A stretch of 64,000 nt of DNA from Squalus acanthias (taxonomy: Eukaryota), in assembly GCA_030390025.1 (NCBI GenBank), contig CM059431.1, positions 150,476,001-150,540,000 on the forward strand, in the 5' to 3' direction. Below the pieces are notes generated by a model that was not told where the DNA came from, did not search any database, and was given only the letters and a program-made list of their open reading frames with translations. Shown piece by piece: positions 7,376-17,948 of this stretch (its first letter is position 1; each line of letters starts with the position of its first letter). The position numbers were made by a program, and so were the translations under genes.

Positions 7376-7547
7376 ATCTCAAGCCCCGGGCATGTGACAT
7401 TTTCCCGCTTATATTTTTTCAGTGTCATTGAGCCGCTTTGATCACCAGGACTTCGACCGACCCCACAGTGAAAAACAACAGAACTGAAACCCGAAGGACC
7501 CAATCGGTCTGAGTGATCTCGCCTGGAGATACCAGAATAAGGAAACA

Positions 7548-7593
7548 ATGCAGCTTGTGGTTTGCATCGTGCTTGTCTCTTTGTGTTTGGACA
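7548..7593 (+). CDS. Signal-peptide coding exon (MQLVVCIVLVSLCLD, phase 1), probably of the ecto-ART gene; exon likely spans 7423-7593
   Basis: ATG in good context (ACAATGC), hydrophobic 15-mer, GTAAGT donor at 7594 and acceptor TTTTTTCAG ending 7422. Phase 1 joins in frame to the acceptor ending at 17087. Confidence 0.7.
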
Positions 7594-7699
7594 GTAAGTA
7601 TTTTCATTCTGCATTGGTACTAAAAGGAAAGTTGCCTCATAATGTACCCAATTTTCCAAATATAATTCACGACCCCAGCTGCAGAAGGATTTGGAGTGG

Positions 7700-10490
7700 G
7701 AAGATAGGAACAGGAGGAGGCCATTCAGCCCCTCGATCCTGTTACATAGAAACAGCAGGAGGCCATTCAGCGCCTCGATACTGTTACATAGAAACAGGAG
7801 GAGGCCATTCAACCCCTAGTTCCTGTTACATAGAAACAGGAGGAGGCCATTCAACCCCTCGATCCTGTTACATAGGAACAGGAGGAGGCCCATTCAACCC
7901 CTCGATCCTGCTACACTGTAACAGGAGGAGGCTCATTCAAACCCTCGAACCTGCAACACAGGAACAGGAGCAGGTTATTCAGCCCCTCAACACAGCTACA
8001 CGGTAATAGGAGGAGGTCATTCAGTCCCTCAACCCAGCTACACAGTAACAGGAGGAGGTCATTCAGTTACTCAACCCAGCTACACAGTAACAGGAGCAGG
8101 TCATTCAGTCCCTCAACCCAGCTACACAGTAACAGGAGGAGGTCATTCAGTCCCTCAACCCAACTACACAGTAACAGGAGCAGGTCATTCAGCCCCTCAA
8201 CCCAGCTACACAGTAACAGGAGGAGGTCATTCAGTTACTCAATCCAGCTACACAGTAACAGGAGGAGGTCATTCAGCCCCTCAACCCAGCTACACAGTAA
8301 CAGGAGGAGGTCATTCAGTCACACGACCCTGCTTCACTGGAACAGGAGGAGGTCATTCAGTCCCACAACACTGCTACACAGGAACATGAGGAGGTCATTC
8401 AGTCCCACAACCTTGCTACACAGGAACAGGAGAAGTTCAGTCCTATAACACTGCTAGCTAGGAACAGAAGTAATTCAGACCCACAACCCTGCTACACAGG
8501 AACAGGAGGATACCATTCAGTTGCTCAACCCAGCTACACAGGAACAGGAGGAGGTCATTCAGCCCCTCAACCTTGCTACATATTAATAGGAGGAGGTCAT
8601 TCAGCCCCTCAACCCTGCTACATAGGAAGAGGAGGTGGTCATTCAGCCCCTCAACCCTGCTACATAGGAAGAGGAGGTGGTCATTCAGCCCCTCAACCCT
8701 GCTACATATTAATAGGAGGAGGTCATTCAGCCCCTCAACCCAGCTACACAGGAACAGGAGGAGGTCATTCAGTTCTTCAACGGTGCTACATATTAACAGT
8801 GGAGGCCATTCAGTCCCTCAAATCTGCTACACGTTAAGTGGAGGAGGCCATTTAGCTCCTAAACTCTGCTACATAGGAACATGAGGAGGTCATTCAGCCC
8901 CTCAACAATGCCACATAGGAACAGGAGGTGGTCATTCAGCCCCTCAAACCTGCTGCATAGGAACATGAGCAGGTCATTCATCCCCTCAACACTGCTAAAT
9001 AGGAACAGGAGGAGGTCATTCAGACCCTCAAACCTGCTACATAGGAATATGAGCAGCTCATTCATCCCCTCAACACTGCTAAATAGGAACAGGAGGAGGT
9101 CATTCAGACCCTCAAATCTGCTACATAGGAACATGAGCAGGTCATTCAGCCCCTCGATCCTGCTACATAGTAAAAGGAGGAAGTCATTCAGCCCCTCAAC
9201 CCTGCTACACAGTAACAGGAGCAGGTCATTCAGCCCCTCAAGCCTGCTACATAGAAACAGAAGAAATTCAGTCCGTCAACCCTGCTAGATAGGAACGGAA
9301 AAAATCAGACACTCAACCCAGCTACACAGTAACAGGAGGAGGCCACTCAGTCCCTCAATCCAGCTACACAGGAACAGGAGGAGGTCATTCAGCCCCTCAA
9401 CCCTGCTACACAGTAACAGGAGGAGGTCATTCAGCCCCTCAACCCTGCTACACAGTAACAGGAGGAGGTCATTCAGCCCCTCAACCCTGCTACACAGTAA
9501 CAGGAGGCGGTCATTCAGCCCCTCAACCCTGCTACACAGTAACAGGAGGAGGTCATTCAGCCCCTCAACCCTGCTACACAATAACAGGTGGAGATTATTT
9601 AGCCCCTCAACCCTACTACATAGGAACAGGAGGAGGGCATTCAGACCCTCAACTCTGCTACACGGTCAAAGATGGTTGCCCTTCTGCCCCTCAAGCCTGC
9701 TACACAATAACAGGAGGAGGCCATTCAGCCCCTCAACCCTGCTACACTGGAACAGGAGGAGATAATTCAGTCCCTCAACCGTGCTACATTGTAACAGAGG
9801 AAGTCATTCAGTCCCGCAACTGCACTACATAGTAACAGAGGAAGTCGTTCAGTGACTCAAACCTGCTACACGGTAAGAGGAGTAATCCATTTAGCCCCTG
9901 AACCCTGCTACATAGGAACAGGAGGAGGTCATTTAGCCCCTCAACCCTACTACATAGGAACAGGAGGAGGTCATTCAGCCCCTCAACCCTACTACATAGG
10001 AACAGGAGGAAGTCATTCAGCCCCTCAACCCTACTACATAGGAACAGGAGGAGGTCATTCAGCCCCTCAACCCTACTACATAGGAACAGGAGGAAGTCAT
10101 TCAGCCCCTCAACCCTACTACATAGGAACAGGAGGAGGTCATTCAGCCCCTCAACCCTGCTACATAGGAACAGGAGGAAGTCATTCAGCCCCTCAACCCT
10201 ACTACATAGGAACAGGAGGAGGTCATTCAGCCCCTCAACCCTACTACATAGGAACAGGAGGAGGTCATTCAATCCCTCAACCTTGCTACATAGGAACAGG
10301 AGGAGATCATTCAGTGCCTCAACCCTGCTACACAGGTACAGGAGGAGGTCATCCAGCCCCATAATCTTGCAACACCGTAACAGGAGGAGGTCATTCAGCC
10401 CCTCAACCCAGCTACACAGTAACAGGAGGTGGCCATTCATTCCTGAAGCCTATTACTTAGGAAGAGGAGGAGGCCATTCAGCCCCTCAGC
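7700..10490. repeat. 42-bp minisatellite (ATAGGAACAGGAGGAGGTCATTCAGCCCCTCAACCCTGCTAC)n
   Basis: Directly visible tandem units with 14-aa ORF periodicity (PQPYYIGTGGGHSA). Confidence 0.97.
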
Positions 10491-11060
10491 CTGTTCTGTC
10501 ATTCAATTAGTTCTTGATGACGCGATCCTCCCTTTACCCACTTTGTCTCCAAACCCCTTTGATCCTCTCACAGAAGAAAAATCTGTTCACCTCAGTCTTG
10601 ATCCCGAGAACCCACAGCCTTTTCAGAGCCAATTGCAGATCTCCGCTATGCTTTGCATCAAAACGTTCTTCCCGATATTTCCTCAGAAACGCTGAGCTAT
10701 AACGTTAGCCAGGCCAACTTTCCAACAGCCTGTTTAATCCCTTTTTGTATCTGTCCACTAGCTCTTTGTGAACTGTATACCTGGACACCCACATCTCTTT
10801 GCTCCTCCACAGCTACAGCTCCAGATCTCTTGGCATTAAGAAAATATTCCCTTTATGTCTAAGCACCAGATTTAATGACCACTCTACCGCAGATTAAACT
10901 CCAACTGCCACAGTTTCCCCCACTCATTTCGTCTGACTACTTCCCTTTGTGACTTACTGCTCCCATTTGCACTACTTACTGTCCCTCCTAACTTGGTGTC
11001 AGCATCAAACTTGGATATACAGTACAACTCTCTATTGCTTCATCCGATTCATGAATATAT
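10460..11060 (-). mobile_element. Highly degraded CR1 remnant contiguous with the 42-bp array
   Basis: GGCCATTCAGCCCCTCAGCCTGTTCTGTCATTCAATTAG resembles the CR1 3' UTR. GGTGTCAGCATCAAACTTGG resembles the reverse-strand KFADDT segment. Confidence 0.6.
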
Positions 11061-16540: not shown

Positions 16541-16547
16541 ATCGCTG

Positions 16548-17005
16548 ATATGGTATGTTACTGGGCTAGTAATCTCGAGGCCTGGGTTTATGATCCAGAG
16601 ACGTGAGTTCAAATCCCAACACAACAGCTGTGGAATTTAAATTCACTAAAATAAATTTGAAATTGAAAAAAAAGAACGTTGGTCTCATTAATTGTGACAC
16701 ATTGGTGACCATGAAACCATGTCCGTTAGGGAAGGAAATCTGCTGCCCTTACCCAGTCTGGCCTATATGTGACTCCAGACCCACAGCAATGTGGTTGACT
16801 CTTAACTGCCCTCTGACATGGCCTAGCAAGCCACTCAGTTGTAACAAACCTCTACGACAAAGTCTGCACTGTGGGAACACCTTCACAAGGACTGCAGCGG
16901 TCCAAGAAGGCGGCTCACCACCACCTTCTCAAGGGCAACTAGGAATGGGCAATAAATGCTGGCATTGCCGGCAACGCCCACAACTGGGGAACGAATAAAT
17001 AAAAA
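16548..17005 (+). mobile_element. tRNA-derived SINE sharing its 3' tail with the 15036-16010 LINE family
   Basis: B-box-like GAGTTCAAATCCC at ~16605, body GGGAAGGAAATCTGC...GGCCTATATGTGACTCCAG, and a tail matching 15900-15990. Confidence 0.8.
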
Positions 17006-17087
17006 ACAGTTACGGGAACTTTGTCTATCTTATGTTCCATTATTTCCTCCATTATGAATTGTCAGAACAATCCGCTTTGTTTCACAG

Positions 17088-17948
17088 CTCGGAGCACTCT
17101 ATCTTTTACAGCTGGAGACCAAACCATCGATCTGGACATGGCGATGAACTCTGCCGCTTACATCTTCACTCAGACCCCGGCAGCCGACGAGGCGGCGATT
17201 GGTTACATCAGAAAGGAATGGGCTGTCAGAGGAGACCTCATTGCAGTGTGGAATAAAGCAAGGAATGCTTTTGGTCCAAATTATAAAATCCCGAGCGGTT
17301 TGAGAAGGGAGCACCTGATGGCAATTCACGCTTACACTCAAGCTTCCCAACTGTACAGTGAGTTTAACACCGCAGTCAGGAGTGCGGCGTAAGTGATGCC
17401 ATCTATCAGAAGAAGTTTCACTTCAAAAGCTTCCATTACCTCCTCTCCGTCGCCCTGGATAAGTTAAAGAGCAATAAGCGTAAGACCTATAGGGGAACTA
17501 GATTCTATTCAATGCCAAGAAGGGAGGTAACGTCAGACTGGCACAATTCGCGTCGTCCTCTTTGGATCTGAAAGTAGCGAAACAATTCATGAACCATTAC
17601 TCGGCGAAAAACACGCTGTTTGAAATAGAGACCAGGTTGGGGGTTCCAATCAGTGCGTTCTCGACCTTCCCGAATGAAAAAGAGGTCCTCATTCCGCCCA
17701 TTGAGGTTTTTAAGGTCAAAAGCACGCTATTGTGGGTAAAGGGGAATAAGTGGAGCTGGCGCAAAATCACTCTGGCAACGAATGGGTGCAAGGGCATCGC
17801 AGTGTCCGTGCAAATCCGCAACGGTGTACTGGAAGTCAAAAGGGGAAATGGGAAGTGTCCCAAATTTTGCCAGTGTTATAAGAGCTGGGAGTTTCTTCAG
17901 CTTAACAACACCGACATCTCCTCGCTAACCCGCAATGGCAGCTTGTAA
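17088..17948 (+). pseudogene. Ecto-ADP-ribosyltransferase (ARTC, R-S-EXE type) catalytic exon with two 1-bp frameshifts (~17380, ~17505); pseudogene or assembly errors
   Basis: Three successive frames give LDMA...W..A...AIHAYT...LYSEFNTAVR / FHFKSFHYLL..AL..L...TYRG / VRLAQFASSS...TLFEIET..G..ISAFS....EKEVLIPP.EVFKV, the vertebrate ART signature. Acceptor TTTGTTTCACAG ends at 17087. Confidence 0.92.

Follow-up and report, generated by a model that had tools for sequence, protein, structure and literature searches.

The stretch of Squalus acanthias DNA analyzed here (the window: 64,000 nucleotides, positions 150,476,001 to 150,540,000 of the forward strand of contig CM059431.1, assembly GCA_030390025.1, numbered from its first letter) carries on its forward strand a gene that almost certainly belongs to the shark branch of the ARTC-type family, the vertebrate ecto-ADP-ribosyltransferases (ecto-ARTs). 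The catalytic exon of this gene consists of three pieces in three frames, with each junction one base short, near 17380 and 17500. Piece A (17088–17380) contains the LDMA motif, the NSAAYIFTQ segment (17147–17173) and the helical N-lobe, piece B (about 17383–17501) contains the FHFKSFHYLL helix and the YRG motif with the catalytic Arg (17488–17496), and piece C (17502–17948) contains ASSS (17550), EKE (17676), the end of the ART core, a Cys-rich tail and the stop. The three pieces match the 222-position Pfam ART profile (PF01129) consecutively, each above the curated cut-off (positions 31–89 at E 2.9e-8, 92–130 at E 5.3e-6 and 135–202 at E 3.9e-19, respectively). Piece A is also found by tblastn, where the matches of five relatives split at about 17380 and 17500, and piece C matches rat ART2.2 at E 5.6e-10. 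A preliminary description of the locus, made from its letters alone, had named the YRG, ASSS and EKE motifs and proposed the Pfam comparison, and on both counts the ART assignment is borne out; its account of the gene as intact is not, as the catalytic exon carries two frameshifts.

As written, the frame of piece A (from 17090) ends at a TAA codon at 17390–17392, giving a 116-residue stub that stops ahead of every catalytic residue, and the Arg of the R-S-EXE motif lies in a different frame from the Ser and Glu. The product of ~300 residues described earlier is consequently not encoded by the sequence as it stands and would be made only if neither one-base break is real. The correct frames contain no nonsense codons, and neither the splice sites nor the catalytic residues are lost. 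Programmed frameshifting was rejected as an explanation, given that there are two separate breaks and that all relatives are read in a single frame.

The first coding exon (7548–7593) opens with an ATG, encodes the signal-peptide-like N-terminus MQLVVCIVLVSLCLD (15 codons) plus one further nucleotide, and ends at a GTAAGT donor; the maximum 11-residue hydropathy in the first 30 residues of the predicted protein is 3.4. When frames are scored against the N-terminal 15 residues of eight relatives, this exon reaches 35.5, the top of 59,133 stop-free 15-residue frames (second-best frame 15.25, mean −13.9, standard deviation 6.8). A predicted phase-1 GT..AG intron of 9,494 nt (7594–17087), which holds a 42-bp tandem array and fragments resembling long interspersed nuclear elements (LINEs), separates it from the catalytic exon. 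Both AG acceptors named in the preliminary description, 17088 and 17112, are in phase with exon 1, but the choice between them is settled by register: acceptor 17088 places 30 residues ahead of LDMA, a spacing shared by 8 of 14 close relatives, while acceptor 17112 places 22, a spacing found in none of the 14, and was rejected. The spliced junction reads LDTRSTLS, and its counterpart in Scyliorhinus P0003 reads LDTRSTLA. Because the N-terminal match, the 30-residue register and the junction all agree with the relatives, the proposed in-frame pairing of exon 7548–7593 with the exon at 17088 across ~9.5 kb is, on homology, well supported. Tblastn with relatives gives a collinear match over 17088–17879 without any intron-sized gap, and vertebrate ecto-ARTs carry the catalytic domain on a single exon, as described in PMC10928986; the two-exon gene is real.

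Upstream of the ATG, 7423–7547 is probably the 5' untranslated part of the first coding exon, being free of ATG before 7548, and as a polypyrimidine-CAG acceptor precedes 7423, a further non-coding exon may lie upstream. One 42-bp repeat unit recurs at 3571–3916, upstream of the gene, and at 7704–10488, within the intron. We compared contigs of four of the 18 listed sequencing runs (X1, X5, X6 and X7) with 16985–17945, a comparison in which 29 of 138 pieces are listed. X7 record 25 crosses acceptor 17088 unspliced, although that X7 is RNA is only a guess, and the record has no bearing on expression. Exon 1 is resembled by none of the 20 loose contig ends listed (of 44); it lies outside the compared stretch, which makes these ends uninformative on splicing.

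Searching with piece C gave 12 matching proteins out of 162 candidates, and the five best belong to sharks and a ray; a profile of the piece-C matches recovered 236 of 2,467 candidates (120 listed) together with 1,922 representatives (150 listed). In a quick tree of 181 rows, which left out unnamed representatives outside 230–345 residues and several near-duplicate named matches, 52 rows split from the other 129 at support 99. Besides the window, every row on the 52-row side is a named shark, ray or Callorhinchus, and the 129-row side includes 104 added representatives, most without a taxon label. A more careful tree of 56 hand-picked rows was built from core columns only, excluding signal and tail, and without an outgroup; mammalian ART1, ART3 and ART4 are not among its labelled rows. 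Here the split between bony vertebrates and chondrichthyans is supported at 100/99, with the chondrichthyan side spanning sharks, rays and a chimaera and standing apart from all sampled bony-vertebrate ARTs. The window falls within a 14-row shark clade (100/98) as sister to the pair of Cetorhinus P0164 and Carcharodon P0167 (97/86), and Narcine P0005 attaches weakly (85/75). Approximately unbiased tests rejected grouping of the shark clade with mammalian ART5 (p 2.5e-5, with two ART5 rows among 25) and with annotated ART1 (p 3.8e-7, with three non-mammalian ART1 rows among 25), which upholds the earlier proposal of a lineage distinct from ART1 and ART5.

RefSeq already contains orthologues from the clade as automatic 'ART-like' models: Cetorhinus P0164 and P0002 (XP_078390065), Carcharodon P0167, Heterodontus P0001 (XP_067864862), Scyliorhinus P0003 (XP_038654757) and Mustelus P0004 (XP_078087799). 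Like the window (56–62% identity), these models have the same N-terminal register, SAAYIFTQ, a Cys-rich tail and a non-hydrophobic end, and together they form one supported clade. They differ from it in having intact frames and, in most cases, in ending three residues after CxC, whereas the window is broken twice and reads through for 20 residues. The names given to these models (ART1-, ART2-, ART5- and erythroblast-like) were assigned automatically and do not denote orthology. Searches of Creative Commons PMC and bioRxiv for work on shark or chondrichthyan ARTs returned no paper about the clade. An ESM Atlas search returned ART clusters only. A search with a coelacanth ART gave no named chondrichthyan among the 120 of 169 matches listed, which does not mean that sharks lack a canonical ART. 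ART copies have also multiplied elsewhere in cartilaginous fishes: in Cetorhinus, short contigs carry a cluster of 16 nearly identical paralogues that end in a transmembrane-like tail (P0190, P0260–P0273), and further expansions are present in Pristis, Hemitrygon, Mobula and Heptranchias.

The fold was assessed on an AlphaFold model of the intact orthologue P0164, not of the window copy (mean predicted local distance difference test score 90.9). The model is most similar to rat ART2.2 (Foldseek E 6.9e-16), and its residues 28–267 superpose on that structure with Z 25.8 and a root-mean-square deviation of 2.1 over 215 aligned positions, while bacterial ARTs reach Z 16.6 at most. Given this difference and the presence of an intron, horizontal transfer from bacteria was rejected. 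In the model, the YIF segment forms a short strand (40–42), and the C-terminus forms a long strand (238–260) followed by a hairpin strand (263–268).

The preliminary description had considered one feature, the replacement of the DDxYxxC segment, unusual for this locus. Among 279 proteins, DDxYxxC is present in 165 and a SAAYIF-type segment in 49, with both in none and neither in 65, and the SAAYIF-type segment also occurs in membrane-tailed shark and ray paralogues. Four conserved Cys of bony-vertebrate ARTs form two disulfides. In a 100-row alignment, their columns are 100, 75, 93 and 97% filled in the 40 bony-side rows, whereas the 60 chondrichthyan-side rows hold 0, 1, 0 and 0 Cys, and the window holds none. 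Because these columns are nearly empty throughout, the lack of these Cys characterizes the sampled chondrichthyan radiation as a whole, including its anchored members; as the tree has no root, loss in chondrichthyans and gain in bony vertebrates are indistinguishable. In the P0164 model, the C-terminal and YIF strands may replace the end-to-end disulfide. The supposedly unusual features are thus not peculiar to the locus but are common to proteins with RefSeq models at 50–62% identity.

The tail (GCKG ... CPKFCQC, 17784–17876) has four Cys (17787, 17856, 17868 and 17874), and CPxxCxC is shared by 11 of the 17 clade members. As described earlier, it carries no hydrophobic glycosylphosphatidylinositol (GPI) signal: over the final 30 residues, the best 11-residue hydropathy is 0.0 for the window and does not exceed 1.1 in any of the 17 clade members, compared with at least 2 in most other paralogues, whose C-termini are hydrophobic GPI-like or transmembrane tails. 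The alternative raised for this gene, splicing to a downstream GPI exon, found no backing within the window, as a profile of 28 anchored tails had no match in its 3,182 stop-free segments (best E 1.4), while a held-out control, P0186, was recovered at 2.5e-10, and the other 46 kb yielded no anchor-like exon. Rooting the tree on the bony side places the tail-less clade inside the hydrophobic-tailed paralogues (modest support, 84/87), and this nesting suggests that the clade lost a membrane anchor. The catalytic motif is ExE in 15 of the 17 members and QxE in two. The isoelectric point (pI) exceeds 9 in 12 of 17 and lies between 5.7 and 7.3 in the rest, with the window pieces at 9.9. An acidic-to-neutral subgroup (P0002, P0004, P0162, P0163 and P0168; pI 5.7–7.3, with ENE or EYE) is monophyletic among the tested rows (99/85).

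Comparison with characterized ARTs places these features in context. Rat ART2.2 (PDB 1gxy) shares the fold of the orthologue model and the R-S-E triad but is only about 30% identical, and the Cys columns of bony vertebrates are empty in the shark clade. ART2 is GPI-anchored (PMC7072381), and rat ART2 has QXE and only hydrolyses nicotinamide adenine dinucleotide (NAD; PMC3102197). Mammalian ARTC5 resembles the shark clade in its R-S-EXE motif, its lack of a GPI tail and its secretion, which on the shark side is predicted (PMC10928986, PMC3163396); ART1–4 are reported as GPI-linked and ART5 as secreted (PMC3163396, PMC10928986) and mainly an NADase (PMC7072381). The two are not orthologous, as judged by the approximately unbiased test (p 2.5e-5). 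ART5 (P0240) keeps DDxYxxC and the C-terminal NC cysteines, and with a root between bony and cartilaginous fishes, the absence of an anchor in the shark clade would be separate from its absence in ART5. The avian NRT/NARE ARTs (heterophil and erythroblast), of which the chicken heterophil enzyme is described as a promiscuous arginine transferase (PMC3102197), are likewise multi-copy and lineage-specific and appear among the matches, but the 100/99 split groups them with the bony vertebrates, and the usual Cys are retained in them.

Whether the window copy can encode such an enzyme depends on the nature of its two breaks. At break 1 (17378–17385), an extra base is present in all covering depth of X1 (85.5 of 85.5) and X6 (39.8 of 39.8). 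At break 2 (17499–17502), it is present in 99.6 of 135.6 depth in X1 and in two near-identical contigs, X7 record 28 and X5 record 15, which come from two samples and two studies, match the window over ~222 nt apart from one letter and the extra base, and side with the window at paralogue-distinguishing sites. X7 record 28 is clipped precisely at break 1. The added bases mostly lengthen the adjacent base, and the end branch of the window in the 56-row tree measures 0.30 against a median of 0.37. As contigs from other samples carry the extra base at both breaks, and near-identical ones at the second, we favor an assembly (consensus) error, which we regard as reasonably probable, over decay of a duplicate, to which we give a distinctly smaller chance, and we consider it fairly likely that the locus has a working allele.

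Were decay the correct explanation, the window copy would be a dead duplicate in a birth-and-death family, with at least break 1 real and a stub or no product, and the intact-looking contigs would be sister copies or other alleles. We hold this to be possible but the less likely case, and several observations speak for it and against a working gene. No contig nearly identical to the window bridges break 1; the nearest has 5 other letters in 117, and may therefore be another copy. The near-identical contigs at break 2 have a depth of 2.3, under the warning level of the tool, and in X1 36 of 135.6 depth lacks the insertion, which is unexplained. In one sample, 17196–17329 is covered by three distinct contigs, none matching the window (5, 9 and 18 differences), so the species has more than one locus. 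Decayed copies are present in the species, as an X1 contig over 17196–17338 has a stop at 17250 in place of a Trp near-invariant across the family, and three skip joints among the contigs likewise reflect decayed copies. The 40 listed differences (of 139) comprise 13 silent, 26 replacement and one stop, a silent fraction not distinguishable from the 22% expected at random (p 0.12) and without third-position excess. An unbroken frame of 1,005 nt for a G-protein-coupled receptor (GPCR) lies nearby, with a chance of about 0.10 of remaining so at 2 indels per 858 nt.

The conserved stop is also read through in the window copy. A stop occupies the position of TGG 17886–17888 in 9 of 11 CPxxCxC-bearing relatives, and in the window 20 further polar residues are read (17886–17948) before the frame stops at 17946–17948, within the first unit of a 21-bp satellite. 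A run past the usual stop also occurs in two Scyliorhinus proteins, and the X7 contig over 17886–17888 seems to share the TGG, because no G>A difference is among those listed for X7. Finally, splicing, secretion and enzyme activity are predictions. Set against decay is the pattern of change itself: two indels against about one substitution per 220 nt is indel-heavy, and such a ratio is typical of consensus error. Neither deletion is shown in any of the 29 pieces listed of 138, and motifs and splice sites are undamaged. The 21-bp satellite, an AT-rich tandem array of about 170 copies (17941–21502), abuts and supplies the ART stop codon, and creates long spurious open reading frames (ORFs) on both strands.

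On balance, we think it moderately probable that the locus represents a single member of a multi-copy shark gene family for a secreted, basic ARTC, with a working allele likely and the breaks being consensus errors or a private null allele. In such a protein, the exon-1 peptide would direct entry into the secretory pathway, and because it has no GPI or transmembrane tail, as is seen in the sequence, the protein would be released rather than anchored. An ART2.2-like cleft would bind NAD+ through the Arg of YRG and the Ser of ASSS, and the Glu-x-Glu would move ADP-ribose onto arginines of extracellular proteins once damaged cells release NAD+, a release reported in inflammation or cell death (PMC7072381). 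Two new disulfides would probably link the four tail Cys, and the basic surface (pI about 9.9) would probably keep the enzyme on anionic surfaces, standing in for a lipid anchor. R-S-EXE is described as marking arginine-specific ARTCs (PMC3102197); the window carries this motif, from which transferase activity is predicted.

A functional protein might instead act mainly as an NAD+ glycohydrolase, modify itself, or be held by a tether whose exon lies beyond the window or does not resemble known tails, alternatives that we together consider improbable. ART5 has R-S-EXE and yet an NADase activity ten times its transferase activity (PMC7072381), and the QxE of 2 of 17 clade members is the pattern of NAD-hydrolysing rat ART2 (PMC3102197); the window, however, has EKE, in keeping with the ExE majority of the clade. 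Tethering could draw on candidate donors within the catalytic exon, such as 17736, but 9 of 17 RefSeq models end three residues past CxC, the CxC motif is continuous with the catalytic exon in the window, and the remaining 46 kb holds no anchor-like exon. For the secreted ARTC that we prefer, an immune or defensive role is plausible by analogy and from the copy-number turnover exemplified by the 16-member Cetorhinus cluster.

Elsewhere in the window, the GPCR frame is a single, unbroken exon of the rhodopsin family on the reverse strand (36154–37161; 335 codons stop to stop, Pfam 7tm_1 E 4.5e-19); as no ATG lies near the beginning of the frame, translation may start farther in or in an exon upstream. 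Many blocks of a 26-bp satellite family occupy 38354–63995, the last of which (62706–63995) is inverted. From ORF motifs, we take the frames at 4406–6132, 13251–15951, 30665–31519, 34103–35320 and 45021–47989 to be frameshifted LINE-like endonuclease/reverse-transcriptase fragments, and a frame at 51813–52289 is presumably GIY-YIG-like.

The locus itself adds little over existing intact models, its frame being broken in the assembly; the clade-level result is the part that may interest specialists in ADP-ribosylation and comparative immunology. Published comparisons of ARTCs, for instance the tree of five species in PMC10928986, draw on bony vertebrates, and the RefSeq ART1-, ART2- and ART5-like names of shark genes should not be read as orthology. 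The chondrichthyan set indicates that the ecto-ART scaffold can dispense with conserved cysteines and that soluble ART forms probably arose more than once, and it makes natural EXE/QXE and basic/acidic pairs available for testing substrate choice. Tentatively, cartilaginous fishes may have their own ARTC radiation without the two usual disulfides, including a shark subfamily that became soluble independently of ART5 by exchanging its membrane tail for a small disulfide-knotted one and that has basic (pI about 10) and acidic (pI about 6) types, a variable ADP-ribosylating toxin turn-turn (ARTT) loop (EEE, EDE, ENE, EKE or QKE) and birth-and-death turnover, whose members, with this locus live among them, might serve as innate-immune or damage-response effectors.

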